Shown here: one piece after another, positions 26,418-46,724 of the stretch
How the letters are laid out: each line of letters begins with the position of its first letter
Position numbering within the stretch: the first letter of the stretch is position 1
NCBI GenBank assembly: GCA_963805085.1
Contig: CAWDTA010000002.1
Location: 1,856,001 to 1,920,000, forward strand
Length of the DNA: 64,000 nt
From: an uncultured Veillonellaceae bacterium
GTDB taxonomy: Bacteria > Bacillota > Negativicutes > JARBTT01
Direction: 5' to 3'
Position numbers and translations under genes: made by a program
The notes under the pieces: model-generated
Told to the model about the DNA's origin: nothing
Database searches by the model: none
The model's input: the letters and a program-made list of their open reading frames with translations, nothing else

Positions 26418-26592
26418 TTCCACTTATAAACTAGTACGAAGATAGGCTGCCAGTTGGTGAAAAGTACTCAGATGCTAGGCACAGTAAGGGGGTGCGAAGG
26501 AGTCGTACTTTTGTACGTCGACGAGCAGTACCTTACTGTAACGACGCAGATGAATGCTTATCGCCGACCCGCGGTCTGTCTGTCCATAGTTT
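26418..26592 (+). repeat. Intergenic repeat family B, full copy
   Basis: gataggctgc/gcggtctgtc outer stem, acagtaagg/ccttactgt and gtac-tttt-gtac inner stems; homologous to 9481-9591. Confidence 0.8.
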
Positions 26593-26682
26593 ATCTACAG
26601 GCTAGAAAACACTTACGAAGTTTTGTAGGTACTTTTATTTTTTTCGCAAAATTTGTATATAATAATAATAAATTATTTGTAT

Positions 26683-28894: not shown

Positions 28895-31723
28895 GTGAAA
28901 GATAAAATAATCGTTAAAGGTGCGCGTGAGCACAATTTGAAAAATATTGATATTGAAATTCCTCGTGATGAATTGGTCGTTGTAACTGGGCTTAGTGGTT
29001 CTGGTAAGTCATCACTCGCTTTTGATACGATTTATGCAGAGGGCCAACGGCGTTATGTGGAGTCCCTTTCCGCTTATGCACGTCAATTTTTAGGACAAAT
29101 GGATAAACCTGATGTTGATTATATCGAAGGGCTGTCGCCAGCAATCTCAATCGATCAGAAAACAACGAGTCGTAATCCGCGTTCTACTGTAGGTACGGTT
29201 ACGGAAATTTATGATTATTTACGATTGATGTTTGCGCGCGCAGGTCGTCCGCATTGTCCTAAATGTGGCAAGCCAATTGCCCAGCAGACGGTAGATCAAA
29301 TGGTGGATCAATTGATGACACAGCCAGATTCGACGAAGATTATGGTAATGGCGCAAGTGGTGCGTGGGAAAAAAGGCGAGCATCAAAAAGTCCTCGATGA
29401 TATTCGTAAAAATGGCTATGTCAGAGTTCGGATTGACGGACAAATTCAAGATGTAAGTGATGAAATAAAATTAGAAAAGAATAAAAAGCATACCATTGAG
29501 GTAGTCATTGATCGTCTGGTGATTCGTGAGGGCATTGAACAGCGTTTGGCAGATTCTTTGGAAACTGCCCTTGAGCTGGGGGAAGGCGTAGTATTTGTCC
29601 AAATCATTGACGGCGAAGAGCTCATGTTTAGTCAAAATTTTGCTTGTGTTGAGTGTGGGATCAGTTTACCAGAGATTGCTCCAAGGATGTTTTCTTTCAA
29701 TAGCCCGTTTGGGGCCTGTCCTGCTTGCACTGGACTGGGCAACAATATGGAGTTTGATATCGAGCTTGTTATGCCAGATAGCAGTATGAGTTTTGCTGAA
29801 GGACTATTTGCACCGTTATCAAAGAACGTCAATTCTTATGCAATGTGTCAATTAGATGCTGTACTCACTAAGTCTGGTTATTCGTTAGACAGCACTTGGA
29901 CTATGTTAGATGAACCAGTTAAAGAGATCATCCTATATGGTTCTGGTGAGGAAAAGTTTAAATATTACTATGAAAATATGTATGGTGAGAATAAAGAATA
30001 TAATTCATCTTTTGAAGGCATTATGCCAATGCTCAACCGCCGTTATAGTGAATCCAATTCTGATGTGCAGCGGGAAGAATATGAGTCGTATATGAGTACG
30101 AAAACTTGTCCAGTTTGTAAAGGGGCTCGTTTAAAACCAGAGACCTTAGCGATTAAAGTTGGCAATAAAAATATCCATGAAGTGACCTGTTTTACGATTG
30201 CCGAATGTAAAGATTTCTTTGACAATGTAGAGCTTTCAGAGCGGGAAAAAATGATTGCCGTACAGATTTTAAAAGAAATCAATGCGAGACTCGGGTTCTT
30301 GTTAGATGTAGGCTTAGACTATTTAACATTAAGTCGTGCAGCCGGTACCTTGTCAGGCGGGGAAGCGCAGCGGATTCGACTGGCCACGCAAATCGGTTCA
30401 GGCCTTGTTGGGGTACTTTACATTCTTGATGAACCAAGTATCGGTTTGCATCAACGTGATAACAATCGTTTACTGGCGACCTTAAAACATTTACGCGATG
30501 TCGGTAATACTTTAATTGTGGTCGAACATGATGAAGATACGATGTATGCGGCTGACCATATCATCGACATTGGTCCAGTTGCAGGAGAAGGTGGTGGCTA
30601 TGTTGTCGCCCAAGGAACAGTCGAGCAAATTAAGTCAAATCCTGACTCTATTACCGGGCAATATTTGAGCCGAAAGCAATATATTCCTGTACCAAAAGAG
30701 CGTAAAATGCCAAATGGTAAATGGTTGGAAGTGATCGGGGCCAAGGAAAATAATCTAAAAAATATCAATGCTGAATTTCCCATTGGACTATTTACTGCCG
30801 TTACAGGCGTATCTGGTTCAGGAAAATCTACCTTAGTAAATGAGATTCTATATAAAGGTTTAGCAAGTAAACTGTATCGTGGCCGTGGTAAAGCAGGCGC
30901 TCATAAAGAAATTCGTGGGATTGATTTGATTGATAAAATTATTGATATTGATCAATCGCCAATTGGTAGAACGCCTCGTTCCAATCCAGCGACGTACACT
31001 GGTTTATTCGATAATATTCGCGAAGTATTTAGCCAGACAAATGAAGCTAAAATGCGTGGTTATAAACCTGGTCGGTTTAGTTTCAATGTCAAAGGTGGTC
31101 GTTGTGAAGCATGTCATGGCGATGGGATTATTAAAATAGAAATGCATTTCTTACCTGATGTTTATGTACCTTGTGAAGTATGTAAAAGCGCCCGTTATAA
31201 TCGCGAAACCTTGGAAGTGCATTATAAGGGAAAATCAATTGCTGATGTGCTCAATATGGTCATTGATGAAGCTTTGGAATTCTTTAAAAATATACCGAAA
31301 TTACAGCGTAAATTGCAAATATTGCAAGATGTTGGCTTGGGATATATCAAGCTAGGTCAACCAGCAACCACGCTTTCAGGCGGGGAAGCACAACGGGTTA
31401 AGCTCGCGACCGAATTAGCGCGTCGTAGCACTGGTAGAACACTGTATATTCTTGATGAACCGACGACTGGTCTGCATACTGCCGATATCCACAAACTTCT
31501 AGAGGTTTTAAAACGTCTGATAGAATGTGGTGATACCGTTGTAGTTATAGAGCATAACTTAGATGTGATCAAGACAGCAGATTACGTGATTGACCTGGGC
31601 CCAGAAGGTGGCTTCCGAGGCGGGAATATTGTCGTCAAAGGTACTCCGGAACAAGTAGCCGCTGAGTCAAAATCTTATACAGGACAGTTTTTGAAGCCAT
31701 TACTTGAAGAGAAAATAGAGTAG
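28895..31723 (+). CDS. uvrA: Excinuclease ABC subunit A
   Basis: GAREHNLKN, two ABC ATPase modules, zinc fingers. Confidence 0.98.
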
Positions 31724-31742
31724 AATCAAAAAAAGTAGAAAT

Positions 31743-31775
31743 AAAAAAGTACCTATAGGTACTTTTTTATTTTTT
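31743..31775. terminator. Terminator-like palindrome after uvrA
   Basis: aaaaaagtacctataggtactttttt. Confidence 0.65.
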
Positions 31776-31860
31776 AGACCAGGGAAGATAAAAGCCATTT
31801 AAGGAATGAAATCATAAAATACTGTTCGATTTAATTAAGGCGAATAAATTTTTTATTTTA

Positions 31861-31957
31861 CCCGTTGAAAAGGATAAGCTTGCAGGAATGTATCTTAATG
31901 AAGGCCTATATACAGGGAAAAAAATTAATGATAAACGTTCCTAAGCTATATTAGTTT
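31861..31957 (+). promoter_or_regulatory. Island motif copy 1: bipartite promoter-like element plus leader hairpin
   Basis: CCCGTTGAAAA 31861, AATGTATCTTAA 31887, then tata-cagggaa...ttcctaagc-tata hairpin. Confidence 0.75.
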
Positions 31958-31992
31958 TCAAAAGTATTATCGTAAATTGAGGAGGAATTTAC

Positions 31993-32925
31993 ATGTCTAC
32001 ATATTATAAAGGAGCAGATTTGAGCTGGCTACCTGCGATGGAATCAAAAAAATATACTTTTAAAAACTCAAGCGGCACAACACAAGACGAAATGACGACG
32101 ATGAAAGAATTAGGAGTTAATGCAGTTAGATTGAGACTATGGGTTAATCCTTCAAGTGACGTCTACAGTGGTATGTGCAATGAAACTCAAGTAATTGGAA
32201 TGGCAAAACGAGCAAAAGCTATAGGTGCTGATATCATGCTAGATCTACATTATAGCGATACATGGGCAGATCCAGGAGCCCAGACAATACCAGCTGCTTG
32301 GTCAACTTGTACTACGATGTCTGCATTAGGGACGCAGGTGTACAATTATACTTATCAAGTGATGACTAATATGAAAAATGCCGGTGTAACGCCTACTTGG
32401 GTACAAATAGGCAATGAGATTAATTCAGGTTTAATATGGCCTCTCGGAAATACTTCAAATGGTTTCGCCAATGTTGCATGGCTAATTAACTCTGGTTATA
32501 ATGCTGTTAAAGCTGTAAGTAGCTCAACTAAATGCATCGTCCATTTAGCAAATGGCTATAATAATACTACTTTTAGATGGTTTTTTGATGGGCTGAAAGC
32601 AGCTGGTGGCAATTGGGATATTATAGGGATGTCACTTTATCCGACGGCAAGTAATTATACTACCTATAACAGCCAATGCTTAACGAATATGAAGGACATG
32701 CTATCTAGATATGATACAAATGTAGTGATTGCTGAAGCTGGGTTTGCCTATAATGATCCAACAACTGCTGCTAAATTTCTTGCACAGCTTAAAACTAATG
32801 TTAAAGCTGTAGGAGGTGTCGGAATATTCTATTGGGAACCTGAATGTTATAATTGGAACAGTTATGGTATGGGCGCAACAGATCCCTCGACTAAAAAACC
32901 AACAAGTGCTATGCCTGCATACTAA
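31993..32925 (+). CDS. GH53 endo-beta-1,4-galactanase, no signal peptide
   Basis: KGADLSW, RLRLWVNP, DLHYSDTWADPG.Q, QIGNEI (acid/base), IAEAG (nucleophile), YWEP; catalytic domain starts at about residue 4. Confidence 0.93.
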   Translation: MSTYYKGADLSWLPAMESKKYTFKNSSGTTQDEMTTMKELGVNAVRLRLWVNPSSDVYSGMCNETQVIGMAKRAKAIGADIMLDLHYSDTWADPGAQTIPAAWSTCTTMSALGTQVYNYTYQVMTNMKNAGVTPTWVQIGNEINSGLIWPLGNTSNGFANVAWLINSGYNAVKAVSSSTKCIVHLANGYNNTTFRWFFDGLKAAGGNWDIIGMSLYPTASNYTTYNSQCLTNMKDMLSRYDTNVVIAEAGFAYNDPTTAAKFLAQLKTNVKAVGGVGIFYWEPECYNWNSYGMGATDPSTKKPTSAMPAY

Positions 32926-33042
32926 GAAGTTCAATCTAAACATAATGTAATTTCTTGTAATTTAATAAAACTATATGCTTCTATTATTCTGAGGGCGTTA
33001 TGCCTTATTAGATAAGGTATATGTAGGCATATTGAAGCCATT

Positions 33043-33080
33043 AATCACTATGGAGTTACAGCTCTGTAGTGATTTTTTTC
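33043..33080 (+). terminator. Intrinsic terminator
   Basis: aatcactatggag-ttacag-ctctgtagtgatt followed by a T-run. Confidence 0.75.
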
Positions 33081-33136
33081 TTGTTAATGTTCATTATACA
33101 GGATGATTCAGATTAGGTGATCATTTTCTAGTTAAA

Positions 33137-33235
33137 CCCGTTTAAAAAAGAATATTAAATAAATGTATATAAGTAAAATCTAATATATAGGGAAAAAAAT
33201 AATGAAAAAAATAGTTCCTTAGCTATATTGGTTTT
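33137..33235 (+). promoter_or_regulatory. Island motif copy 2
   Basis: CCCGTTTAAAA 33137, AATGTATATAA 33162, hairpin aatata-tagggaa...ttccttagc-tatattgg. Confidence 0.8.
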
Positions 33236-33261
33236 TAGAAATTTAGAAGGGTTGTGTAAAA

Positions 33262-34263
33262 ATGTCTACTTATAATGTAACGACTTACTCAGATCTAAAA
33301 AGCAAGGTGGCAGCAGCAGGATCAGGAGATACAATTTATATTGGAGCTTCGATTACTTGTACTGCTCAAATCGTATTGAGTGGTAGTGGTATCACTCTAA
33401 CGGCAAAAAGCGGAGTAACCCCTGTTCTTGATTTTTCGGCTATATCCAGTATTAACTCAGGTTCAGCTGGTATTGGAATCTATGTAACAGGCAGTAATAA
33501 TACGATTAGTGGCCTTATCGTACAAAAAGCTGGTGATAATGGACTGAAAATTGAAGGTGCTAGTAATACGGTGCAAAACTGTATCTTCCGTTATAACGGA
33601 GATACAGGTCTACAGATATCCAAGTCTACAGCTAAAAAAAATACGATCAAGTATTGTGATTCCTATCGAAATTGTGATAAAGCAACGAGTGGTGGAAATG
33701 CGGACGGCTTTGCCTGTAAGTTGAGTGCTGGTGCAGGCAATTCATTTATTGGTTGCCGAGCTTTCCAAAATTCTGATGATGGTTGGGACAGTTATGATAT
33801 GAATAATGATGTTACATATACCGATTGTATTACTTGGCATAATGGAGACGCGAGTATAACTACTTATGCTGGTAATGGCAATGGTTTTAAACTTGGCTCT
33901 AAAGGTGCCACTGGAAAACGGACAATGACTCGCTGTATCGCGTGGGATACAAAATATAGCGGTAAAAAAGGATTTGATCAAAACAATGGGGTTGGAGTAG
34001 TAACATTAACCAACTGCCTGTCTTTTGACAATGTGATTGGCTATCAGCTGGATGATGCTACAAGTCTTACTATGACAAACTGTAGAGAGTTTAATTGCAC
34101 TTCCTCCGATTCTCTTCCTTCTGGTGTAACTGTTACGAAGATTACGGATACAGCTAAACAAGCTTCAATTCGTAGTGCAATTAAAACTGCGTGCAATAAA
34201 ATTTTATCCAATTGCGAAAATAATATCATTACTGGAGCAATCACTTTGAATATATGGAGCTAA
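33262..34263 (+). CDS. PL9-family pectate lyase (parallel beta-helix), no signal peptide
   Basis: AGDNG, N.DTGLQI, GNADGFACKL (catalytic Lys), NSDDGWD, GNGNGFKLG. Confidence 0.88.
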   Translation: MSTYNVTTYSDLKSKVAAAGSGDTIYIGASITCTAQIVLSGSGITLTAKSGVTPVLDFSAISSINSGSAGIGIYVTGSNNTISGLIVQKAGDNGLKIEGASNTVQNCIFRYNGDTGLQISKSTAKKNTIKYCDSYRNCDKATSGGNADGFACKLSAGAGNSFIGCRAFQNSDDGWDSYDMNNDVTYTDCITWHNGDASITTYAGNGNGFKLGSKGATGKRTMTRCIAWDTKYSGKKGFDQNNGVGVVTLTNCLSFDNVIGYQLDDATSLTMTNCREFNCTSSDSLPSGVTVTKITDTAKQASIRSAIKTACNKILSNCENNIITGAITLNIWS

Positions 34264-34332
34264 TAGCTAAAAATAGTTATTACAGGCGTTGCAAAAAGTT
34301 TTGGAAAAATAATTAGAAAATACTATGAGTTT

Positions 34333-34358
34333 GCCCCTAGCTTAGGCTAGGGGTTTTT
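34333..34358 (+). terminator. Intrinsic terminator
   Basis: gcccctagc-ttag-gctaggggt followed by a T-run. Confidence 0.8.
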
Positions 34359-34595
34359 AATTTTTATCAGGTTAATTTCAAACTTGAAAGCGTGTATGAA
34401 AAATAATGTATGTAAAAATTGCAATGAAAAATATGATACGGTATATATTTTGTCACAACAGAGATCTTTAAATAATCGGAAAGTAAAGGGGCGATTGTAT
34501 AGTTAAGATACGTTATGAAATATAGAAAAATTCACCTATATTAATCGTTAATTTACTTTTTTTAGTAGTAAAATTACCATTTTAGACAAGACATA

Positions 34596-34624
34596 TTGAA
34601 ATAATAGAAAATTGTAATTATAAT
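34596..34624 (+). promoter_or_regulatory. Possible sigma-A promoter upstream of the sigma-factor unit
   Basis: TTGAAA-17-TATAAT, but in very AT-rich DNA. Confidence 0.4.
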
Positions 34625-34760
34625 TAAATATAACTGGTAAAAATGTAAAAATATTCAATCAAATAAGACGTAAAATATGAAATTATCAAATAATTTTTAT
34701 ATTTGTACATTTTGAGAACAAATTGCATGGGGGTAATGAAAAAAAAGTAAAAGTAAAATT

Positions 34761-34790
34761 AGCTGCTTAATTTAGAGCGGCTTTTTGTTT
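34761..34790 (+). terminator. Terminator-like hairpin
   Basis: agctgct-taatttag-agcggct followed by a T-run. Confidence 0.55.
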
Positions 34791-34863
34791 TCTTTAGTAG
34801 CTGATGGCGAAATTAAGTTAGAGATAACGTCGAAAAAAATTTTTTTATATAATTGTGGGTTGA

Positions 34864-34953
34864 CCCGTTTAAAAAAGCATCTTTAAAAAATGTATATAAG
34901 TAGAAGCCAATATTTAACAGAATAAATTAAAAGTATTTTGTTATAGCGGCTTT
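34864..34953 (+). promoter_or_regulatory. Island motif copy 3
   Basis: CCCGTTTAAAA 34864, AATGTATATAA 34889, hairpin aagcc..taacagaata / tattttgtta..ggctt. Confidence 0.8.
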
Positions 34954-34986
34954 ACAAAAACATTAAAAATTTGGGAGGCGATTTAA

Positions 34987-35187
34987 ATGGTATACAATCA
35001 AGATTTATCTAGAAATAGTGGGGTGAATGGTAGAAAAGACTTGATCGTATCACAAGAAAACCAACTTATTTTTGTTAATAGTAAGAATATTTCTAAAAAT
35101 GTCAAATTTACGTGCGTTATTAAGAAAGCGTTTACTAATAGTATAAAAAATAATAGAAATGCAGAAAAATCATGGGTACAGTGTTAG
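34987..35187 (+). CDS. Small 66-aa ORF sharing RBS and N-terminus with the GH51 gene; overlaps the sigma start
   Basis: GGAGG RBS; ggaggcgattt(t)aaatg.. tacaatcaagatttatct is shared with 37253-37290 (MVYNQDLS vs MSYNQDLS). Confidence 0.5.
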   Translation: MVYNQDLSRNSGVNGRKDLIVSQENQLIFVNSKNISKNVKFTCVIKKAFTNSIKNNRNAEKSWVQC

Positions 35188-35678
35188 ATTTTGAACCACT
35201 AGTGCGTAAATACACTTGGAATAAATCAGAGGATGTAAGGGCGGAAGCCTGGTTAGCAGTAGTGGAGGCAACAAAATTATATGATTCTACGAAGGGAGTA
35301 CCATTTGCTGGTTATGTAAAAAGCAAAGTCAAATATTCAGTTTGGAATATGGTTAGGAAGCAGCAAAGGAAATGCCAGTATGAAGTGGCTATTGAGGGGG
35401 ATGGTGATAATGAAGAAAATAGTCTACTTGATACATTACAAAGCAGCACAAATGTTTCAGATGAGGTTGAGAAGAAGTTTTTGACTGAAGAATTACAAGC
35501 AGCTATTAATATGCTGCCAGAACGTCAGCGGATTGCTGTACTTAAAACTGTAGCTTGGAACTTTAGTCAAACAGAAACTGCAGCAGCATTGGGGGTAACG
35601 CCACAAGCAATATTTAATTTGCGCAATCGTGGGTTGGCCCGTTTAAAAAAAACGGCCTGTATGAATGTATATAATTAA
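35172..35678 (+). CDS. Small alternative sigma-70 factor (regions 2 and 4 only)
   Basis: FEPLVRKY, D..AEAWLAVVEA..LYD.TKGVPFAGYV (region 2); LPERQR..SQTETAAALGVTPQAI...RNRGLARLKK (region 4 HTH). Confidence 0.88.
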   Translation: MGTVLDFEPLVRKYTWNKSEDVRAEAWLAVVEATKLYDSTKGVPFAGYVKSKVKYSVWNMVRKQQRKCQYEVAIEGDGDNEENSLLDTLQSSTNVSDEVEKKFLTEELQAAINMLPERQRIAVLKTVAWNFSQTETAAALGVTPQAIFNLRNRGLARLKKTACMNVYN

Positions 35679-35730
35679 AGCCAATATACATAGAAAAATT
35701 TAATGAAAAGGTTCTGGACTATTGAAAGCA
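35638..35730 (+). promoter_or_regulatory. Island motif copy 4, inside the last codons of the sigma gene
   Basis: CCCGTTTAAAA 35638 (codons A-R-L-K), AATGTATATAA 35664 (N-V-Y-N), then aagccaatataca. Confidence 0.8.
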
Positions 35731-35824
35731 ATAAGAAAGGTGTATGTTGATGGGGAAACGATAAAGAGTTTCATATATATTAAAGTTTCTTTTTTTAATT
35801 AATAAAGTAATAGGAGTGTTGATT

Positions 35825-37009
35825 ATGAGTGATTTATACGTATCTAATTCAGGAAGTGCCAGTAATGCAGGTACTGTGAGTAGCCCGCTTACTCTTGTTG
35901 CGGCAATTACAAAGGTTGCTGCAGGCGGGACAATTTACATGATGTCAGGAACATATAGTTATGCTACTCAAATAACGATTGAGCGTGGCAATAATGGAAC
36001 TTCAGGTAGTTACAAAAGCATTAAGCCATACAACTCTGGAACCGTAATCTTAGACTTTTCTTCCCAGACGTATGGAGATCCTTCGAGTGTAAGTAATCCT
36101 AGAGGACTGCAGATCAACGGCAATTACTGGCATATAAAAGGACTTGCTGTAAAAGGCGCTGCTGACAATGGTATTTTTATCGGAGGGAGCTATAACAAAA
36201 TAGAACTTTGTGAAACTTATGCGAATAGAGACTCAGGCTTGCAGTTAGGAAGATATATCTCCACCGCCGCAGAAAGTGAATGGCCAGCATATAACGAAAT
36301 CCTGAATTGTACTTCTCATGATAATTCTGACCCTGATAATGGCGAGGATGCGGATGGTTTTGCTTGCAAGCTGACTACAGGTGAAGGCAACGTATTTAGC
36401 GGTTGCATTTCCTATAATAATGTTGATGACGGTTGGGATCTATATACAAAATCTGCCACTGGTGCTATTGGCGTTGTAACTATAAAAGACTGTGTAGCCT
36501 ATAATAACGGTGTAACTTCTAGTGGGACAAGTACGGCAAACAGTGATGGTAATGGATTTAAATTAGGTGGTGACAAAGTAGCTGTTAACCATATAGTGAA
36601 AAATTGTATAGCCTTCAATAACAAAAAGCATGGATTTACCTATAATAGTAACCCAGGCTCTATCACGTTAACAAATTGTACAAGCTATAACAACGGAACT
36701 ACATCAGGAAGCAATTTTTCTTTTGATAAAGGTATGCATGTATTTACTAATTTATTATCTTATAAAGCTAGTTCAAGTGATAAGACAAGCGGTACTGATG
36801 TAAATAGTTCAAATGTATGGTGGAAAAATTCAAAAACTACAAATGCAAATGGGTTAGCTTGTAATGATGCAGACTTTGTTAGCCTTACTCCAGCCGTAAC
36901 TAGAAATACGGATGGTTCCATTAATTTAGGAAACTTTTTAAAACTTGCTGCTGGTAGTGACCTGATTGGTGCAGGCACTCCAAGTGGCACTAATATTGGA
37001 GCTAGATAG
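35825..37009 (+). CDS. PL9-family pectate lyase, no signal peptide
   Basis: LYVS..GS..NAGT..SP, AADNG, NRDSGLQL, EDADGFACKL, NVDDGWD, DGNGFKLGG. Confidence 0.92.
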   Translation: MSDLYVSNSGSASNAGTVSSPLTLVAAITKVAAGGTIYMMSGTYSYATQITIERGNNGTSGSYKSIKPYNSGTVILDFSSQTYGDPSSVSNPRGLQINGNYWHIKGLAVKGAADNGIFIGGSYNKIELCETYANRDSGLQLGRYISTAAESEWPAYNEILNCTSHDNSDPDNGEDADGFACKLTTGEGNVFSGCISYNNVDDGWDLYTKSATGAIGVVTIKDCVAYNNGVTSSGTSTANSDGNGFKLGGDKVAVNHIVKNCIAFNNKKHGFTYNSNPGSITLTNCTSYNNGTTSGSNFSFDKGMHVFTNLLSYKASSSDKTSGTDVNSSNVWWKNSKTTNANGLACNDADFVSLTPAVTRNTDGSINLGNFLKLAAGSDLIGAGTPSGTNIGAR

Positions 37010-37055
37010 ATTTATATAATTTGGATGGTATGTCAAATTCGATTTTTCTCAACAT

Positions 37056-37086
37056 ACCCGGTATCTTAGGACGCCGGGTTTTATTT
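37056..37086 (+). terminator. Intrinsic terminator
   Basis: acccggtatc-ttag-gacgccgggt followed by a T-run. Confidence 0.75.
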
Positions 37087-37139
37087 TATATCTAGTTTAA
37101 TGACCAATTCGGGACAATACTTCGAATTTTTTATTTTTA

Positions 37140-37238
37140 CCCGTTTAAAAAAATTTTTTAAATCAATGTATATAAGTATAAGCCAATATACAAGGAAAAA
37201 ACACAATTTGATAAGAGTTCCTTAGCTATATTGGCTTT
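37140..37238 (+). promoter_or_regulatory. Island motif copy 5
   Basis: CCCGTTTAAAA 37140, AATGTATATAA 37165, perfect aagccaatata/tatattggctt stem (37180-37237) with inner aaggaa/ttcctt. Confidence 0.82.
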
Positions 37239-37266
37239 TATTAGGAATTTCTGGAGGCGATTTTAA

Positions 37267-39777
37267 ATGTCTTACAATCAAGATTTATCTGCAGATAAGA
37301 CAGATATTAATAATTGTAAAAACGGGGTTGCTTTGGAACTGGAAGTAAATACAGATCAGATAGGTATAAACATTAGTCCTGATCTTTATGGAATATTTTT
37401 TGAAGATATAAATCATGCTGCAGATGGTGGCTTATATGCAGAATTAATTCAAAATCGCTCTTTTGAGGATGATTCAACAACACCTAAACATTGGTCATTA
37501 GTAAAGACAGGAACAGCTGAAGGTACAATGACTCTTGATGATACTGTTCTTTTAAACAGCGTTCAGTCGAGATCGTTACGTCTTGATGTAACAACGGCAG
37601 ACCCAGCTGGAAGCATTGGTATAGCAAACGAAGGTTATTGGGGGATAAGCGTAAAAAAAGGAATACAATATAATTTATCATTCTTTGCTAAAGCTAGCAG
37701 TGATTTTTCAGGAGATATAACAGCTAGTCTCCAAAGCGCTGCTGGACAAACTGTTTATGGACAGATAGTACTATCAAGTATAGCTACAGAGTGGGAAAAG
37801 TATATTGTGACAATTACTTCAAACGGAACTGACCAAAATGCAGTATTTGTATTATCAATAAATACAGTAGGCTCAGTATGGTTTGATGTGGTCTCGCTGT
37901 TTCCGCCGACGTTTAATAATAGACCTAATGGACTAAGAGAAGATCTAGTAAACATGATAAAAGAGATGAAGCCTAGGTTTATGAGATTTCCAGGAGGATG
38001 CTTTGTTGAAGGAGCGGCTATGGCAACTGCGTTCAGGTGGAAAACTACGATTGGAAAGATAGAAGAAAGAGCAGGACATCAAAATCTTTGGGGTTACCAT
38101 ACAACTGATGGTATGGGATATCATGAATTCCTGCAACTTTCTGAAGACCTTGGTGCAGAACCATTGTATGTTATCAATATTGGGATAGCCCACAAAGATA
38201 ACATCCCGCTGGAGGAACTTGATTCTTGGGTACAAGAGGCTCTTGATGCTATAGAGTATGCAAATGGGGATATTACAACAACATATGGTGCGATGAGAGC
38301 AGCCAATGGTCATTATGAATCTTTTAATTTAAAATATATTGAAATCGGTAATGAAAATAATCAACATAGCACCACGGATAACAGAAGTAATCTTTATGGT
38401 GACAGATATATCAAGTTTTATAATGCGATAAAGAATAAGTATCCCGAAATATATACGATAGGCAATGTTGAAGCATGGGGGACAGATACACCTTCATGGC
38501 AATATTCACATCCAGTGGAATTGGTTGACGAGCACTATTATAGAGGGACACAATGGTTTATCAATAAGGCTAATAAGTATGACAGTTATGATAGAAACAG
38601 TCATAATATTTATGTAGGAGAATATGCGGTTACTACGACTCTTGACTGTGGAAAAGGAAATTTAAATGCAGCTATAGGGGAAGCCGCTTTCATGACAGGA
38701 CTTGAAAAAAATTCTGATATTGTAAAAATGGCTTCTTATGCACCATTATTGGTTAATACAAATGATCGAGCGTGGAATCCGGATGCAATTGTTTACAATG
38801 CTTACGATGTGTATGGAACACCATCTTATTATGTACAAAAAATGTTTGCCAACAACCTAGGTAGTTTTATTTTACCTACAACGTTAAAATTTTTGAATAG
38901 TACTACGGATACTACTTCTACTTCGGCTAGGCAGATTGTGGGACAAGTAGGAATTGGCAGCTGGGATACAGCAGTGAGTTATAATAATGTTTCAGTTACG
39001 AAAAATAGTGATAGCAGTATTTTCCTAACGAATGATTTTTCAGAAGATGCACCTAACTGGAAGGTGATAAGTGGTACTTGGAGTCTAACGTATAATCAAA
39101 CCAATACTACTGTAGAGCCTGGAATGATAGTTGCTGGAAGTAGTGATTGGAATAATTACACACTGGAGCTAACAGCGAAGAAGATGAGTGGCAGCGAAGG
39201 AATGATGATTTACTTTGGATTTTTAGATGGTGATAATTCTTATGATTTAAATCTTGGCGGGTGGAAAAATACTCTGCATGCTATACAAAAAAATGATAAT
39301 GGAAGCACATCATTACTTGCTAGTCAAGCCGGATCGATTAAAGCAGGTCAAAGTTATAAAATTAAGGTAGTCGTTTCTGGAACAAATATTAAGGCTTATT
39401 TGGATGACCAATTATTATTTGATGTAACTGATTCATCGCCATTAAAACCAGCTACTCGTGATCCATTATATTTTGTCACAAGTAAGGATACTGAGTCAGG
39501 AGATATTATCATGAAAGTAGTAAATCCTAACGACAAAGATGGTAAGGCTGTGATAAGAATTAACGGAAAAGATAAAATTTTAGGCGGGACAGCAAGCGTG
39601 CTCACTTCAAATAATATTGCCGATGAAAATTCATTTGCAAACCCATTAAAAGTAGTTCCTGTTGACAGTCAATTTGTAAGTTGTGGTGAATCAAACCAAT
39701 TTAACTATATATTTTCTAAGAATTCGATAACTGTATTAAGATTAGAAACGCATGGAAATCATATAATAATTAAATAA
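37267..39777 (+). CDS. GH51 alpha-L-arabinofuranosidase with inserted beta-sandwich domain, no signal peptide
   Basis: LYGIFFEDINHAADGGLYAEL..NRSF, RFPGGC, IGNEN, VDEHYY, YVGEY, MASYAPL. Confidence 0.93.
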   Translation: MSYNQDLSADKTDINNCKNGVALELEVNTDQIGINISPDLYGIFFEDINHAADGGLYAELIQNRSFEDDSTTPKHWSLVKTGTAEGTMTLDDTVLLNSVQSRSLRLDVTTADPAGSIGIANEGYWGISVKKGIQYNLSFFAKASSDFSGDITASLQSAAGQTVYGQIVLSSIATEWEKYIVTITSNGTDQNAVFVLSINTVGSVWFDVVSLFPPTFNNRPNGLREDLVNMIKEMKPRFMRFPGGCFVEGAAMATAFRWKTTIGKIEERAGHQNLWGYHTTDGMGYHEFLQLSEDLGAEPLYVINIGIAHKDNIPLEELDSWVQEALDAIEYANGDITTTYGAMRAANGHYESFNLKYIEIGNENNQHSTTDNRSNLYGDRYIKFYNAIKNKYPEIYTIGNVEAWGTDTPSWQYSHPVELVDEHYYRGTQWFINKANKYDSYDRNSHNIYVGEYAVTTTLDCGKGNLNAAIGEAAFMTGLEKNSDIVKMASYAPLLVNTNDRAWNPDAIVYNAYDVYGTPSYYVQKMFANNLGSFILPTTLKFLNSTTDTTSTSARQIVGQVGIGSWDTAVSYNNVSVTKNSDSSIFLTNDFSEDAPNWKVISGTWSLTYNQTNTTVEPGMIVAGSSDWNNYTLELTAKKMSGSEGMMIYFGFLDGDNSYDLNLGGWKNTLHAIQKNDNGSTSLLASQAGSIKAGQSYKIKVVVSGTNIKAYLDDQLLFDVTDSSPLKPATRDPLYFVTSKDTESGDIIMKVVNPNDKDGKAVIRINGKDKILGGTASVLTSNNIADENSFANPLKVVPVDSQFVSCGESNQFNYIFSKNSITVLRLETHGNHIIIK

Positions 39778-39800
39778 TTGGTAGTCTTTAGTTTTAACAA

Positions 39801-39849
39801 TAAAAAGTGGTATAAATTAGCTAGAAATAGCTGTTTATACCACTTTTTA
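39801..39849. terminator. Bidirectional terminator between convergent genes
   Basis: taaaaagtggtataaa / tttataccacttttta. Confidence 0.75.
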
Positions 39850-39921
39850 GTTGCATTTATAGCATTTTATTTTTTATATTTCAGTTATTATTATAAAAGA
39901 ATGTTTCACTCTTTTTGGCGT

Positions 39922-40869
39922 TTATGTGCATTGACCGCAACTGTTGCAATCACTGGAAGTGCAGTTGCTTTTTTCGGTACGTTTCGTGGACATAATCGTA
40001 ACCTTAATATCGGACAACGGATAACGATGGTCAGTGGAGTCGGTAATGATGACATCGGTCTTTGTAAAGGTTAAGGTAAGGGGCAAAGTGATCGTGTCGT
40101 TGTCATCAAGGGGATTCATTTTTTCAATGGGTTTGATTAAATCGACGGTTTCTTTTGTTGTGAGCATGAACTGATCGATCGTTTTTATGGATACAATATC
40201 CCCAGTTTCACTGAATTGGAGAGAATTACGGTCAGCGTGGATGCCAATGCTTTGCGGATCAAAAGCATTGATTTTGCCAATTGGCGTTGTTACTGGTGTC
40301 GGTCTAGCCGGTTCCACGGAGGTTATGTTGCCTTGCTGATCCAAGGAAAAGCCGGTTTTTACAGCAATAGTACCAACTGGTGTTGCAAGGTCTATCACTT
40401 CTGCTGGCTGCAGAGTTAAACTATATAGTTGTCCTGTTTCATAAAAATGCAGGCTGATAATTTTGGCAGTGAATTTTGCAAAATCGAAATCGAAGGTAAA
40501 GGGGCGCGCTAATTCACTTTCTTGGCTTTCTGACCAATAGCCACTGAGCCTGCCATTTAAGGGGAAGATTCTTTTGAGGGCACCTGTCGGGTAAAAAGTG
40601 ATGAATTCAGCGGGGATTTTGCCAAATGGCGTTTGGATTTGGGTGCTTGCTTCGAGAGAAATGCTTTTTAAATCCCCTGATTCATAAAAGGTTAGGGAAT
40701 TGATATATTTACGGCGCAAGTCATCATAATGATACTGCGGTACTAAGTCACCAACCTTTGTTTTGATAATGTTTTTTTCTTGAAGAATGCAACCCGCTAA
40801 GGTACCATTGTTATGATATTCTTCACGAGTACAATCCATGAGTGTACCGTAGTTTGTTTCAATGTTCAT
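39922..40869 (-). CDS. nif-associated hypothetical protein with internal beta-repeats and Cys-rich C-terminus
   Basis: Repeated FY.(S/T)G.L.(S/R) and (T/K)P.G.I units; ends CTSSDCNSCGQCT; co-oriented with the AnfO-like gene. Confidence 0.7.
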   Translation of the reverse strand: MNIETNYGTLMDCTREEYHNNGTLAGCILQEKNIIKTKVGDLVPQYHYDDLRRKYINSLTFYESGDLKSISLEASTQIQTPFGKIPAEFITFYPTGALKRIFPLNGRLSGYWSESQESELARPFTFDFDFAKFTAKIISLHFYETGQLYSLTLQPAEVIDLATPVGTIAVKTGFSLDQQGNITSVEPARPTPVTTPIGKINAFDPQSIGIHADRNSLQFSETGDIVSIKTIDQFMLTTKETVDLIKPIEKMNPLDDNDTITLPLTLTFTKTDVIITDSTDHRYPLSDIKVTIMSTKRTEKSNCTSSDCNSCGQCT

Positions 40870-40881
40870 AGTTAATCATCC

Positions 40882-41514
40882 TTAATATTTACAGATTTTT
40901 TTTGTGATTGTTACAAGCATCGCTGAACCACTTTTTTTATTGACAATGTCAAAAACGCTTTTGTATTCAGTATTTTCTAACCAAGGTGGTAAGTGTGAGC
41001 AGAGCATATCCAATTTGATAAAGGGAGTATTGTGTAAAAAGGGCTGTAAGGCTTTTTTTGATGAAATATCAGGGCGGTTCGCTTGCAATTGAATGAGATC
41101 CAAAAAATAAATGCCATCAACAGTCTCAATGGGAGTGGTTGGTATCGCTTCATTTCGCTCGATATTTTCCGTATTGTTAATGATATCCATAAAAATGTCA
41201 TTAAGAACCGTTTTCTGAAAAGTAGGCACTTCAAATATATGAAAGCCCATACGATCAAAAACGTTGTACACAAGGCCAGTAATGGACTGACTGACAATGA
41301 TATTACAATCATCTAACTTGGTAATTAAATTGCGTACTTGATTCCTAATTTCCTGCAGGTTAGTCGATAAATCAATTTGATAAGGAATTTCTTTTCTCGC
41401 GATCCAATCAGTATCTCGTTTTTCAAAGACCATAAGCGTATCCGCTTGGGTTAACTTAGCAAGGTCACTTTTTCCTTTGAAAGTTACAGCAATTTTCTCT
41501 GCCATATCATTCAC
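40882..41514 (-). CDS. AnfO-family nitrogenase accessory protein
   Basis: KIAV, L..C.IIV...ITGLVY..FD.MGF.IFE, Y.LDL..LQ......SSKKALQPFL....F..L...CSH.PPW. Confidence 0.8.
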   Translation of the reverse strand: MNDMAEKIAVTFKGKSDLAKLTQADTLMVFEKRDTDWIARKEIPYQIDLSTNLQEIRNQVRNLITKLDDCNIIVSQSITGLVYNVFDRMGFHIFEVPTFQKTVLNDIFMDIINNTENIERNEAIPTTPIETVDGIYFLDLIQLQANRPDISSKKALQPFLHNTPFIKLDMLCSHLPPWLENTEYKSVFDIVNKKSGSAMLVTITKKICKY

Positions 41515-41769
41515 TACCTTTCTGTACGATTTAAAGTTTGTATAATTTTAATAATATAACGATGTGTACACAAAAAGTCAATAATTAAAAATGTATACAA
41601 AATTTTTTTAAAAAATGTAAAATGTATATTTTTGTCGAAAACAAAAGTCTTTTAGGTGGAAACGTTAATTTTTAAAGTGGAAAATAGGATGGCTTAAATT
41701 TAAAAATCATTTCATTTTTAGATCAGAATATTGTGATAATTTATTGGGTTTTTTGCATAAAAATGGCCA

Positions 41770-41798
41770 TTGACAGAGGGAATCTTTTAAATTATAGT
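41770..41798 (+). promoter_or_regulatory. Sigma-A promoter of the nif operon
   Basis: TTGACA-17-TATAGT; no sigma-54 -24/-12 motif noticed. Confidence 0.7.
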
Positions 41799-41879
41799 TA
41801 CCGTATAAACAATTCACACAAAAACATTTTAAGTTTTTAAAAAATATTGCTTAAAAAATTAATAAGGTAGTGCTAAGAC

Positions 41880-41933
41880 AAAGACAGTCTTGATTATAAG
41901 CTTTCGCTATAATTAAGACTGTCTTTTGCTTTC
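41880..41933 (+). terminator. Leader terminator/attenuator between the nif promoter and nifH
   Basis: aaagacagtcttgattata / tataattaagactgtcttt 19-bp stem followed by T-rich tail. Confidence 0.7.
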
Positions 41934-42005
41934 TAAGGTATAAAGTACAAATCATTTCCACCTTAATTTGGTGGTGATGGTACTTTAAATAAAAAAATTA
42001 AGTGA

Positions 42006-42848
<843 letters not shown>

Positions 42849-42900
42849 GGTTAAATAGCAAATTTAAGTAAAAGAGCAATTTTGAGAGGAGCTAACTATT

Positions 42901-43224
42901 ATGATCATGATTAGAGCCATTGTTAGACCGGAGAAATCTAATGTTGTATTATCGGAGCTTTCTGATGCTGGGTATTCTGGGGTAACCAAAGAAGAAGTAT
43001 ATGGTCGCGGTCGCCAAAAAGGAATCATTGTCGGTGAGGTGCATTATGATGAATTACCGAAAGAACTTTTAATCATTTTTGCTAATGATGAAGATAAAGA
43101 TGATATTATCAAAATCATTTTGAAAAATGCAAAAACAGGTGAGGGCAATTTCGGTGATGGACGTATTTTTGTGAGTCCAGTACTGGAAGCATATACGATC
43201 AGTTCAGGCAAAGCTGGCTTATAA
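42901..43224 (+). CDS. nifI1: PII-family nitrogenase regulator NifI1
   Basis: IRAIVRPEK, V.GRGRQKG, YDELPKE, G.FGDGRIFV; lies between nifH and nifD. Confidence 0.9.
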   Translation: MIMIRAIVRPEKSNVVLSELSDAGYSGVTKEEVYGRGRQKGIIVGEVHYDELPKELLIIFANDEDKDDIIKIILKNAKTGEGNFGDGRIFVSPVLEAYTISSGKAGL

Positions 43225-43243
43225 GAGAAGGGGTGGCTATATA

Positions 43244-43648
43244 ATGAGAGAAATTATGGCTTTTATACGGATGAATATGGTAAACCCAACCAAGCAGGCA
43301 CTTGCCAAAGCTGGGTATCCGGCGTTTAACTTTTCAAAAGCTGTAGGCCGTGGCAAGAAGCCACTGGCTACAAAAGCAATCGAAGTCATCATGGGCAATG
43401 CCGGTTCTGTACCTGCCGATTCGATTGGTGAACATTTGTCGGAAGGGACGCGGCTCGTATCAAAACGTGCCTTTACTCTAATTGTTGATGATGAGCAAGT
43501 AGAATTGGCAGTGAAAACGATTATCAAGGTAAATCAGACAGGAAATCCTGGCGATGGTAGAATCTTTGTTATGCCAGTGATGGAAGGCTACAATATTAGA
43601 ACAGGTGAATGTCGTGAGCGAGAAAGCGATTTGACAGATAGGAGGTAA
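43244..43648 (+). CDS. nifI2: PII-family nitrogenase regulator NifI2
   Basis: EIMAFIRMN....TKQAL, GRGKK, NQTGNPGDGRIFV. Confidence 0.9.
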   Translation: MREIMAFIRMNMVNPTKQALAKAGYPAFNFSKAVGRGKKPLATKAIEVIMGNAGSVPADSIGEHLSEGTRLVSKRAFTLIVDDEQVELAVKTIIKVNQTGNPGDGRIFVMPVMEGYNIRTGECRERESDLTDRR

Positions 43649-45246
43649 TGGCTGTGGATAAACGTACGAAAATTTTAGATAAATATTCTGCACGGGTTTT
43701 TAAAAACCGTAAAGATCATATTATTGAGCTAGAAGATGTTGCGAACGCGCAAAGCATCGCAGCCAATAGCCGAGCAATACCAGGGGTTATGACAAATCGC
43801 GGCTGTTGTTATGCTGGCTGTAAAGGTGTTGTTTTAGGCCCATTAAAGGATGTTGTAGTTATTACACATGGCCCAATTGGTTGTGGCTTCTATACTTGGG
43901 GAACACGTCGTAATAAAGCAAAAGCAAGTGATAATGGCAAGAACTTTATTGAATATAGTTTTTCCACTGATATGCAAGAACCAGATATCGTATTTGGTGG
44001 GGAAAAGAAATTAAAGCAAGCAATTACCGAAGCGGTTGAGATTTTCAAACCAGAATGTATTATGATTTGTTCCACCTGTCCAGTTGGGCTAATCGGTGAC
44101 GATATTCATGCAGTAGCGACTTGGACAGAAGAAACATATAAAATAAAATGCGTTGCTTATAGTTGTGAAGGTTATAAAGGGGTCAGTCAATCAGCTGGTC
44201 ACCATATCGCCAATAATAGTTTAATGAAATATGTTATTGGTACAGGGGATAAGGCGCCAACACAAAAATTCTCCATAAATATTTTGGGTGAATATAATAT
44301 TGGTGGCGATGGCTGGGAAACTTCTCGTATCTTAAAAAGAATTGGTTATGAAGTGATTTCGGTATTTACTGGTGATGGTAGTTATGAAGAAATAAAAAAT
44401 GCGCATACAGCAAACTTAAATTTAGTGCAATGTCATCGTTCTATCAACTACATTGCAGAAATGATGAAAACAAAGTATGGCATTGATTGGATCAAAGTTA
44501 ACTTTATCGGTGTCGATGAAACAATTCGTTCCTTGCGCGAAATGGCAACGTATTTTGGTGATGCTGATTTAACCGCACGGACAGAAGCTGTTATCGAAGA
44601 TGAGCTTGCAAATATTGCTGATGATATGGCATATTATAAATCAAAATTGCAAGGGAAAAAGGCTGGTTTATTCTGCGGTGGTTCACGTTCCCATCACTAT
44701 CAAAATTTACTTGCTGACCTAGGCGTAGAAACCGTCGTAGCCGGCTACGAATTTGCGCATCGCGATGATTATGAAGGCAGGGAAGTGCTTCCTACCATCA
44801 AAACAGATGCCGATAGTAAAAATATCGAAGAAATGACAGTTACACCAGATGAAAGACATTTCCGCTTACTTTTGACCCAGGAAAAATTCGAACAATTGTC
44901 TAAGGCAATTGATTTAGAAGCGTATGCTGGGATGATTAAAGATATGGGTAATGGTACAGTGGTAATCGACGATTTTAATCATTATGAAACTGAACAATTA
45001 ATAGAATTATTCAAACCTGATATTTTCTATTCAGGCATTAAAGATAAATATATTATTCAAAAAATCGGAGTTGTATCGCGGCAGTTGCATTCCTATGATT
45101 ATAGCGGCCCTTATGCTGGATTTAAAGGAGCAGTTAATTTCGCTAGAGATACGACGATGGGAATTTTCACACCTGCGTGGAATTATGTAACTCCACCATG
45201 GCGCACGCTGCCAACGCTAGAAGGAAAGATTGGAGGTGAGGAGTAA
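43648..45246 (+). CDS. nifD: Mo-nitrogenase alpha chain (clostridial group II type with internal insertion)
   Basis: RGCCYAGCKGVV, LVQCHRS (cofactor Cys), QLHSYDYSGPY (Nif-type His ligand). Confidence 0.96.
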   Translation: MAVDKRTKILDKYSARVFKNRKDHIIELEDVANAQSIAANSRAIPGVMTNRGCCYAGCKGVVLGPLKDVVVITHGPIGCGFYTWGTRRNKAKASDNGKNFIEYSFSTDMQEPDIVFGGEKKLKQAITEAVEIFKPECIMICSTCPVGLIGDDIHAVATWTEETYKIKCVAYSCEGYKGVSQSAGHHIANNSLMKYVIGTGDKAPTQKFSINILGEYNIGGDGWETSRILKRIGYEVISVFTGDGSYEEIKNAHTANLNLVQCHRSINYIAEMMKTKYGIDWIKVNFIGVDETIRSLREMATYFGDADLTARTEAVIEDELANIADDMAYYKSKLQGKKAGLFCGGSRSHHYQNLLADLGVETVVAGYEFAHRDDYEGREVLPTIKTDADSKNIEEMTVTPDERHFRLLLTQEKFEQLSKAIDLEAYAGMIKDMGNGTVVIDDFNHYETEQLIELFKPDIFYSGIKDKYIIQKIGVVSRQLHSYDYSGPYAGFKGAVNFARDTTMGIFTPAWNYVTPPWRTLPTLEGKIGGEE

Positions 45247-46610: not shown

Positions 46611-46638
46611 AAAAATGTGATGTACAATAAGTAGAGAA

Positions 46639-46703
46639 AGCAAAATAGACTCTTGATACAAAGATGTATTTCATTTGTTCAAGGGTCTATTTTGCTTATT
46701 TTT
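46639..46703 (+). terminator. Long intercistronic stem-loop between nifK and nifE
   Basis: agcaaaatagactcttga / tcaagggtctattttgct followed by T-rich tail. Confidence 0.65.
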
Positions 46704-46724
46704 GTATTTAAAGGAGGGCTAGCG

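Follow-up and report, generated by a model that had tools for sequence, protein, structure and literature searches.

A putative sigma factor-read promoter and hairpin leader in front of signal-less plant cell wall enzymes in an uncultured Veillonellaceae bacterium

How could plant cell wall-degrading enzymes that have no signal peptide leave a bacterium that has an outer membrane? This question is raised by a locus of an uncultured Veillonellaceae bacterium (host genome of 4.21 Mb) that lies in a 64,000-nucleotide (nt) stretch of contig CAWDTA010000002.1, referred to below as the window. Negativicutes, to which this host belongs, are Firmicutes with an outer membrane. The locus comprises genes for a GH53 endo-galactanase, two PL9 pectate lyases (PL9a and PL9b), a GH51 arabinofuranosidase and a small sigma-70-family factor, and five copies of one bipartite promoter-like motif occur in it. 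Pfam searches agree with the gene identities given in a preliminary description of this DNA, GH51 also carrying a CBM4 domain. The PL9 motifs DGF, DDGWD and NGFKLG align to Pel9A (PDB 1ru4), and a terminator-like hairpin is found 3' of each of the four enzyme genes, as had been described. The features are given below, with ORF for open reading frame and aa for amino acids.

31861..31895, + strand: promoter-like element 1, -35 GTTGAAAA and -10 AATGTATCT (pattern match and weight matrix)
31897..31965, + strand: 5' hairpin leader 1 (covariance model 61.8 bits, training member; covariation)
31993..32925, + strand: GH53 endo-galactanase, 310 aa, starting at the mature N-terminus of signal-bearing relatives (Pfam, homologue comparison)
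33043..33074, + strand: intrinsic terminator-like hairpin 3' of GH53
33137..33170, + strand: promoter-like element 2 (pattern match)
33172..33242, + strand: 5' hairpin leader 2 (covariance model)
33262..34263, + strand: PL9 pectate lyase a, 333 aa, without signal peptide (Pfam, Pel9A alignment)
34333..34354, + strand: terminator-like hairpin 3' of PL9a
34596..34624, + strand: sigma-A-like site TTGAAA-17-TATAAT, possible priming promoter (consensus match alone, at a frequency no higher than in shuffles)
34761..34782, + strand: terminator-like hairpin between the sigma-A-like site and element 3 (RNAfold)
34864..34897, + strand: promoter-like element 3, 5' of the small ORF and sigma gene, candidate autoregulatory promoter (conserved in loci L041 and L042)
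34899..34960, + strand: 5' hairpin leader 3, diverged (covariance model 44.7 bits)
34987..35187, + strand: 66-aa ORF overlapping the sigma start
35172..35678, + strand: 168-aa sigma-70-family factor, regions 2 and 4, of a short, lysis cassette-associated clade (Pfam, TIGR02937, AlphaFold model, tree)
35638..35672, + strand: promoter-like element 4, within the last sigma codons; downstream hairpin decayed (no covariance model match)
35825..37009, + strand: PL9 pectate lyase b, 394 aa, without signal peptide (Pfam, Pel9A alignment)
37056..37079, + strand: terminator-like hairpin 3' of PL9b (RNAfold)
37140..37173, + strand: promoter-like element 5 (pattern match)
37175..37245, + strand: 5' hairpin leader 5 (covariance model 65.1 bits)
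37267..39777, + strand: GH51 arabinofuranosidase with CBM4, 836 aa, without signal peptide (Pfam)
39801..39849, + strand: long terminator-like hairpin 3' of GH51 (RNAfold)

The pattern CCCGTTKAAAA-N13..16-AATGTATMT matches exactly at 31861, 33137, 34864, 35638 and 37140, all on the + strand and with spacers of 14 or 15 nt, which are the five copies previously reported, and has no match in 100 dinucleotide shuffles. The motif had not been seen elsewhere in the window and, in this strict form, it occurs at just these five places in the host genome. A relaxed core, GTTTAAAA-N14/15-AATGTATAT, had escaped that first reading and defines 24 host-genome sites, which score at least 19.9 bits vs maxima of 18.1 and 18.4 bits in two shuffled genomes (the weight matrix was trained on 14 sites, all among these 24). 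At the sites outside the window, the box is preceded by TATA, ATGT or TTGA, not by CCCG. Sixteen host-genome copies, when compared, agree in the two boxes and vary in the spacer.

The fourth copy is part of the sigma coding sequence and reads there as R-L-K-K ... M-N-V-Y, a position that had gone unnoticed. Relatives of the sigma factor are found in 65 of 401 Negativicute genomes, mostly as a single chromosomal copy that has the same boxes in its last codons and is mostly followed by DUF1659, DUF2922 and YvrJ; the family is missing or rare in the large Negativicute families f12, f17 and f24. At the -35 site of the sigma genes, Arg is encoded by CGT in 27 of 29 cases vs 70 of 359 elsewhere in the same genes, and Leu by TTA in 27 of 29 vs 164 of 567 (31 of 37 genes with 36-61% GC, six without an anchor having been dropped; related genes are not independent). 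Two genes are without this lock, those of L027 and of the host chromosomal paralogue, neither of which is directly followed by the DUF pair, and in L031 the box is shifted to just beyond the stop codon. This codon choice demonstrates, at the level of the compared genes, that the motif at the sigma 3' end is under selection as DNA. The strict motif is present in 12 of the 65 sigma-positive vs 2 of the 336 sigma-negative Negativicute genomes (reversed control: 2/401), and in core loci the motif precedes DUF1659-DUF2922-YvrJ.

Because of the codon lock, of the conserved boxes around a variable spacer and of the enrichment in sigma-positive genomes, the motif behaves as a promoter, and it very probably serves this Negativicute family of small sigma-70 factors as their -35/-10 promoter, located within the final codons of the sigma genes. 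Two other assignments were tried and rejected. A sigma-A reading finds a TATAAT-like hexamer without a -35 box at 17 bases, and comparison with the usual SigH consensus finds GAAT in many copies but no AGGA box.

Four of the five window copies are followed by a conserved leader, not reported before, which the aligned motif copies share 3' of the -10 box. Its fold is a two-helix hairpin in which 88.8% of the alignment cells are paired, as compared with 36-48% in slid controls. In an alignment of 30 copies from 8 genomes, hand-picked from motif-anchored matches, 25 double-sided changes were counted vs 11.7 when shuffled (0/500 shuffles), counts that are not probabilities because the rows are selected and related and kinship inflates them. 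Single-sequence folding of five leaders gives weak z-scores (-1.0 to -2.3), so that the structure claim rests on covariation. The covariance model also matches loci outside its training set (L096, L105, L122 and L124) and finds no hairpin at the DUF1659 loci, the C3 lysis-type operon and the UviA-like loci tested. With 150 candidates scored per genome and training members included, 18 matches occur in the host genome and 14, 7, 5, 10 and 6 in genomes G184, G034, G004, G098 and G027, respectively. No Rfam family came near its gathering score in the window interval 31700-40000 or in the elements of L006, L050, L113 and L041. The hairpin marks cargo genes, not lysis or DUF1659 genes, and it persists where the promoter is lost. 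In two other genomes (L096:4725-5415 and L124:1060-1869), arrays of element and hairpin start right after an ArpU/RinA-like gene (named by eye), which is the position of a phage late promoter.

The locus had been regarded as a pectin-specific regulon, a view that does not hold, since motif-led genes of the host also encode GH48-GH9-GH44 proteins with CBM3, GH26, a C1 protease, FN3 proteins, tail fibre-like proteins and an XhlA-like protein with an amidase. The cellulase operon (L044:9713-17072) is leaderless, has its GH44 split in two ORFs and stands behind a weak copy (19.9 bits); as GH48 occurs in only one of the 401 Negativicute genomes searched, the host, this cargo is lineage-specific. 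Partial copies precede leaderless genes for GH62 and two GH30 (the second named by likeness to the first). Among 1824 host proteins without signal or membrane helix, the regulon supplies 14 of the 54 that are most extracellular-like in composition and 8 of the 1770 others. Most probably, the motif drives a dispersed regulon of which the window is one module. The host DUF1659-DUF2922 pair has a degenerate copy of 17.7 bits, which is within the shuffle range, and YvrJ was not found in the host genome. Another repeated unit, made of a leader and a 74-108-aa ORF starting MYRIY or MYRTY, occurs at L006:9530-10298 and several other sites, often near regulon genes, and this ORF has no Pfam or PHROG family match.

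Which factor would read this promoter can be approached from the window sigma. It matches Pfam region 2 and region 4_2 and scores above the TIGR02937 cut-off, having regions 2 and 4 only, as in sigma-70 factors of the extracytoplasmic function-like type (group 4). Its AlphaFold model has two helical domains, its Foldseek matches are to sigma-70 factors in general, and look-alikes in the ESM Atlas, a lead only, are phage and Bacillota sigmas. A tree of 33 rows groups it with the short sigmas of G034 and G044 (L051-L053 and L061) in a clade that is starred (96/95) and adjoins the chromosomal one, UviA-like proteins branching elsewhere; the deep joins carry long-branch warnings. At least three short sigmas of this clade (L051, L052 and L061) end holin-lysin-spanin-like cassettes, and the motif embedded in them leads a hairpin and a leaderless LamG/FN3 gene. 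Alignment did not find the sigma in IMG/VR, and its matches to phage and plasmid records were weak only; four viral contigs contain the DNA element, and viral contigs carry arrays of the cassette.

The sigma had been compared to TcdR, BotR and UviA. Membership in that group fails on the -35 box, on the region 4.2 marker and on the tree. According to the accessible parts of PMC4031146, group-5 sigmas are marked by a -35 TTTACA and by SRQ in region 4.2. All copies here have TTTAAA or TTGAAA instead, and the window sigma has TPQ where the UviA-like proteins fetched have SRQ or SKQ; it forms a separate branch with 22-28% local identity to them, and no clostridial plasmid sigma was matched in its search. 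A factor with closer ties to that group does occur in the host, which has two further candidate sigmas missed previously: a chromosomal paralogue and the TcdR-like P0021, with TRQ in region 4.2 and matches to 31 Clostridium records. P0021 adjoins one motif-led operon and may be a third reader of the motif, which is embedded in the genes of the other sigma family. The operon next to P0021 is that of L009:8013-14128; it resembles L048:4428-8325 in being motif-led without a hairpin, with proteins of 526-570 aa of no known family followed by repeated paralogues of 300-334 aa.

That the window sigma is dedicated to its locus is likewise not borne out: 24 sites are spread genome-wide, the region 4.2 recognition helix GVTPQAI(F/Y)NL is the same in the window sigma and its chromosomal paralogue, and with a single sigma match apiece, G004 and G027 contain 5 and 6 hairpin elements. 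These two genomes suggest that the chromosomal sigma would probably suffice for the regulon and that the window copy is an amplifier, not a dedicated switch. The proposed positive autoregulation is plausible, as a perfect motif copy lies upstream of the sigma operon. The only neighbour that could be considered as an anti-sigma is the 66-aa ORF, which is poorly conserved and absent from other short-sigma loci. In L041 and L042, its length is conserved and its sequence diverged (62% and 41%), and its N-terminus is similar to those of GH51 and of tail fibre-like cargo; it is probably a decayed cargo remnant that serves translational coupling to the sigma gene. The sigma-A-like site upstream is retained in L042 and mostly lost in L041.

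A hydrophobicity heuristic finds no signal peptide-like N-terminus in any of the four window enzymes, and in-frame extension upstream does not yield one, in agreement with the earlier report that they are leaderless. GH53 begins MSTYYKG. In all seven relatives of 80-88% identity (one of them named Clostridium estertheticum), this stretch comes after a signal peptide (e.g. VKA-ATYYKG), and 114 of 120 GH53 homologues are signal-like. The comparison makes GH53 a clear candidate case of signal peptide loss following gene capture. For PL9a, the seven closest relatives are leaderless and the next (74%) is signal-bearing, with 81 of 120 homologues signal-like. In G184, a leaderless orthologue of PL9a (85%) is part of a hairpin-led GH51-PL9-PL9-sigma operon lacking the -35 and -10 boxes, a signal-bearing PL9 paralogue (74%) is without motif and hairpin, and the full element precedes a leaderless GH53 at another place. 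More generally, 2 of 55 first genes behind the element are signal-like (a set that includes orthologous cargo and four DUF1659 genes), and among proteins of extracellular-like composition 2 of 17 in the regulon vs 56 of 129 others carry signals (p 0.016). As for type II secretion, one stand-alone secretin and no convincing PF00437 ATPase (best 25.5 bits, marginal) were detected in the host genome, which is rated 83% complete, so that the absence of such genes is not proven.

In G004 (L050), the full motif occurs twice directly before holin-amidase-Rz-like genes, and at C3:293259 of the host a copy of 29.6 bits precedes an XhlA-like gene and an Amidase_2 gene. In six chosen genomes, an Amidase_3 or GH25 gene is found no more than 6 kb from 12 of 40 element loci (ca. 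1 expected) and from 21 of 60 hairpin matches (ca. 1.5 expected), the host genome being counted by Amidase_3 alone and contig ends being ignored. A pair of holin and peptidoglycan hydrolase is present in L050 and in a tail cluster on host contig C5, while the motif-led host pairs have the XhlA-like gene only. Rz-like genes accompany the cassettes (weak PHROG matches), and no head genes were seen at three host lysis-type cassettes when ORF lists were read by eye. Gene context in prophage remnants places the promoter and hairpin cassette at or after holin-endolysin-spanin genes and before accessory tail fibre- or lectin-like genes, some of these cassettes also carrying their own short sigma copy. 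The C5 tail cluster itself (G000:C5:795597-829621, partly L047) is phage-like and tail-only, lies ca. 8 kb after recA and has no head genes seen; it contains an XRE-like repressor, an ArpU-like activator, tail genes, a 1444-aa tape measure-like gene, a holin, an amidase, an Rz-like gene and then a weak element with its cargo (the tail and regulator genes being named by eye), and is a candidate F-type tailocin.

These data may be brought together in a type 10 secretion-like regulon, in which enzymes made in the cytoplasm are released by holin/endolysin lysis; we regard the chances of this as evenly balanced, and the same even judgement applies to its central step, the passage of the enzymes through the lysis genes. 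In such a scheme, the chromosomal member of the sigma family would read the motif for DUF1659-DUF2922-YvrJ, and prophage remnants carry the promoter and 5' hairpin as a portable expression cassette. In the host lineage, this cassette has captured genes for polysaccharide-degrading enzymes that are without Sec signals, at least one with its closest relatives in clostridia. Its promoter would be read by both the chromosomal and the window sigmas, and the phage-type window copy could amplify itself because its own gene sits behind a promoter (element 3), its translation being probably coupled to the 66-aa ORF. Given the outer membrane and the lack of a detected type II system, enzymes exported by Sec would remain caught in the periplasm. 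Instead, enzymes translated from hairpin-led mRNAs would accumulate in the cytoplasm of cells in which the sigma is on, until the products of co-regulated XhlA/holin-amidase genes breach the envelope, probably as a fraction of the cells lyses, by analogy with RoeA/YenLC in Yersinia entomophaga and with UviA/UviB loci (PMC9527704), and burst cells would provide enzymes to the remaining population. A fuller version is put forward tentatively, as falling short of an even chance: a suicidal programme of exoenzyme release would have been built from a sigma similar to SigS, from phage lysis cassettes and from a new 5' RNA hairpin. In this programme, enzymes from monoderm bacteria would lose their signal peptides on capture, a small number of cells, committed by the self-amplifying sigma, would burst and so provide pectinases and cellulases for the population, and the switch would serve to deploy spare tail-fibre proteins as well.

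Several observations weigh against release by lysis. No holin or lysin is found in or near the window, the nearest cassette being ca. 113 kb off, and 28 of the 40 element loci are more than 6 kb from any detected lysin. The XhlA-like identity of the motif-led host lysis-type genes is weak (Pfam E 0.018, Atlas 0.91), the XhlA-like/amidase pair of L006 is preceded by a degenerate copy of less than 14 bits, no copy stands immediately 5' of the canonical holin gene in the C5 tail cluster, and a search with the familiar LexA-like pattern gave no box upstream of the window sigma. The G184 operon has retained its hairpin and lost its -35 and -10 boxes. Signal peptides were assigned by a hydrophobicity heuristic and not by SignalP, GH51 enzymes are often cytoplasmic, and the incompleteness of the host genome bears on the secretion argument. 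Furthermore, two host targets, GH43 (C5:53013) and a C39 peptidase (C2:1465779), keep a signal peptide, and further pectin and xylan enzymes of the host that are not in the regulon carry signals too, from which it follows that Sec-routed enzymes are tolerated.

Part of these points would suit a reading that we consider unlikely, in which promoter and regulon are the same and the enzymes remain cytoplasmic to act on oligomers that have been taken up, or escape only when cells autolyse in general or when mother cells lyse at sporulation, the lysis link being one of cassette ancestry only. The distance of the window and of most element loci from lysis genes agrees with it, as does the patchy occurrence of the sigma family across Negativicute families (that it tracks sporulation is a guess), and GH51 and exo-type PL9 are able to act inside the cell envelope. 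GH48 and GH9-CBM3 cellulases and endo-galactanase, however, act on insoluble or large polymers, and the G004 motif stands directly before holin-amidase-spanin-like genes. Export without lysis looks distinctly improbable to us. It would proceed by holin translocation, as proposed for TcdE/TpeE, or by flagellar type III secretion, with the hairpin or S/T-rich N-termini as the signal. In its favour, the hairpin marks the cargo genes and outlasts promoter loss, other leaderless host proteins of extracellular-like composition include flagellar components (named from sequence), and the chromosomal sigma lies ca. 4 kb upstream of a flgM-flgK-like cluster; holin export without lysis is also reviewed in the accessible passages of PMC9527704. 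GH53 nevertheless has no added N-terminal tag, and the Rz-like genes that go with the cassettes, although they are weak PHROG matches, point to spanins, which indicate outer membrane rupture according to the same passages.

Two further readings concern the motif more than export. A local switch, in which the window sigma alone would read the five CCCG-type copies and all other sites would belong to the chromosomal paralogue, would explain why the strict CCCGTTKAAAA form is found only in the window, and the PL9-ORF-sigma-PL9 block does stay together in L041 and L042. We hold it to be quite unlikely, as the recognition helix is common to both sigmas, CCCG-type boxes are scattered in G184 (one of them before a GH53 orthologue, far from any sigma) and the core-sigma genes themselves carry CCCG, CACG and CGCG variants. 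Finally, sigma 3' ends might have been copied along with the cassettes as passive relics having no promoter role, given that the element is made of sigma C-terminal coding sequence plus flank and that many copies are in mobile DNA; the synonymous codon lock, the boxes conserved around a free spacer in non-coding copies, the fixed spacing to ribosome-binding sites and the covarying leader make this very improbable indeed.

The system has parallels in five known systems. SigI and its partner RsgI are biomass-sensing sigma and anti-sigma factors of cellulolytic clostridia, which resemble the present case in that an alternative sigma controls plant-wall enzymes and in the A-tract of the -35 region. 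Here, no RsgI-like anti-sigma adjoins, the targets have no signal peptides and a SigI assignment was rejected, the window sigma scoring 26.7 bits vs a model cut-off of 244. Prophage morons and accessory tail-fibre cassettes are also promoter-gene-terminator units inserted after the lysis module, whereas the units described here all share one alternative-sigma promoter and a hairpin, and some are now chromosomal enzyme genes.

The closest functional parallel is type 10 secretion. As far as the available parts of the sources go, in Y. entomophaga RoeA/YenLC a regulator couples a lysis cassette to exoproteins in soldier cells (PMC10847048) and in Serratia ChiR/ChiWX type 10 secretion has a master regulator (PMC9527704). 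As in those, one regulator is thought to link a phage-derived lysis cassette and dispersed exoprotein genes via a common promoter motif, in a diderm host and with cargo that has no signal peptides. Unlike those, the regulator would be a sigma factor having the promoter in its own 3' end, and the cargo is made of plant-wall enzymes and tail fibre-like proteins with a common RNA leader in a diderm Firmicute. The present regulon would work like a type 10 system and is a candidate member of that class. The analogy with toxin loci drawn in the preliminary description was right in direction, as signal-less cargo does stand beside a small sigma, and stops short of family membership. According to the parts available of PMC4031146 and PMC9527704, the TcdR/BotR/TetR/UviA loci with their TcdE/UviB holins also combine a small sigma, holin, endolysin and signal-less cargo, and their -35 differs by one base from the one found here; the TTTAAA box, TPQ instead of SRQ, the separate position in the tree and the dispersed regulon set the present system apart.

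In S. aureus, the available passages describe DUF1659-DUF2922 (sroAB) as a direct SigS target and SroA as stabilising sigS mRNA, by which positive feedback is reported (bioRxiv 10.1101/2022.10.19.512975; see also PMC13192611). Both systems have a region-2/4 sigma and a DUF1659-DUF2922 target, a likeness by gene content; here the chromosomal sigma gene is immediately followed by the pair and then by YvrJ, and the passages searched on SigS contain no promoter consensus, phage link or lysis role. In the literature searched, from which most subscription papers and bioRxiv supplements fell outside the coverage, no description of this system was found, so that the promoter of this sigma family and the structured leader RNA appear as new. 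Together they provide a predicted promoter for a sigma family tied to DUF1659/DUF2922, a structured leader not described in that literature and a clear candidate for signal peptide loss following capture. They also offer a testable answer as to how outer-membraned Negativicutes with no type II secretion detected get large polysaccharide-degrading enzymes outside. If true, regulator-coupled lysis release would extend from toxins and chitinases to plant biomass degradation, and the suicidal version would also give DUF1659-DUF2922-YvrJ the context of a lysis module.

DUF1659 is present in 131 of 251 Bacillota genomes searched. Outside Negativicutes, an amidase- or peptidase-like gene follows DUF1659-DUF2922-YvrJ in ca. 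8 of 30 loci (L072, L074, L075, L081, L082, L086, L089 and L090), that of L072 being confirmed by PHROG; YvrJ has a weak holin match (E 0.0013), and LexA-like boxes occur before DUF1659 in L064, L067, L069, L073 and L077. Possibly, the module is an ancient holin-lysin cassette that damage induces.

The closest named relative of the window locus is found in a Massilibacillus metagenome-assembled genome, with a sigma of 94% identity at the same site after uvrA and GH53 missing; the next, in Pelosinus baikalensis (L041), has a sigma of 80% and the PL9-ORF-sigma-PL9 block at a different site. In one run of one metatranscriptome study (word share 0.10), eight contigs, six at 90-95% identity and two below 90%, span most of the four enzyme genes and the sigma gene, one of them covering 34925-37022 from sigma to PL9b; these contigs show no starts, strand or level and are not counted as evidence. 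Next to the locus, at 39922-48065, AnfO-like and MORN-repeat genes on the minus strand are followed by a nitrogenase cluster with nifH, two PII-like genes, nifD, nifK and a nifE-like gene (nif names by eye). Finally, a non-coding intergenic repeat recurs at 26454-26600 of the window and at L006:12236-12433, and is also seen after the chromosomal sigma.

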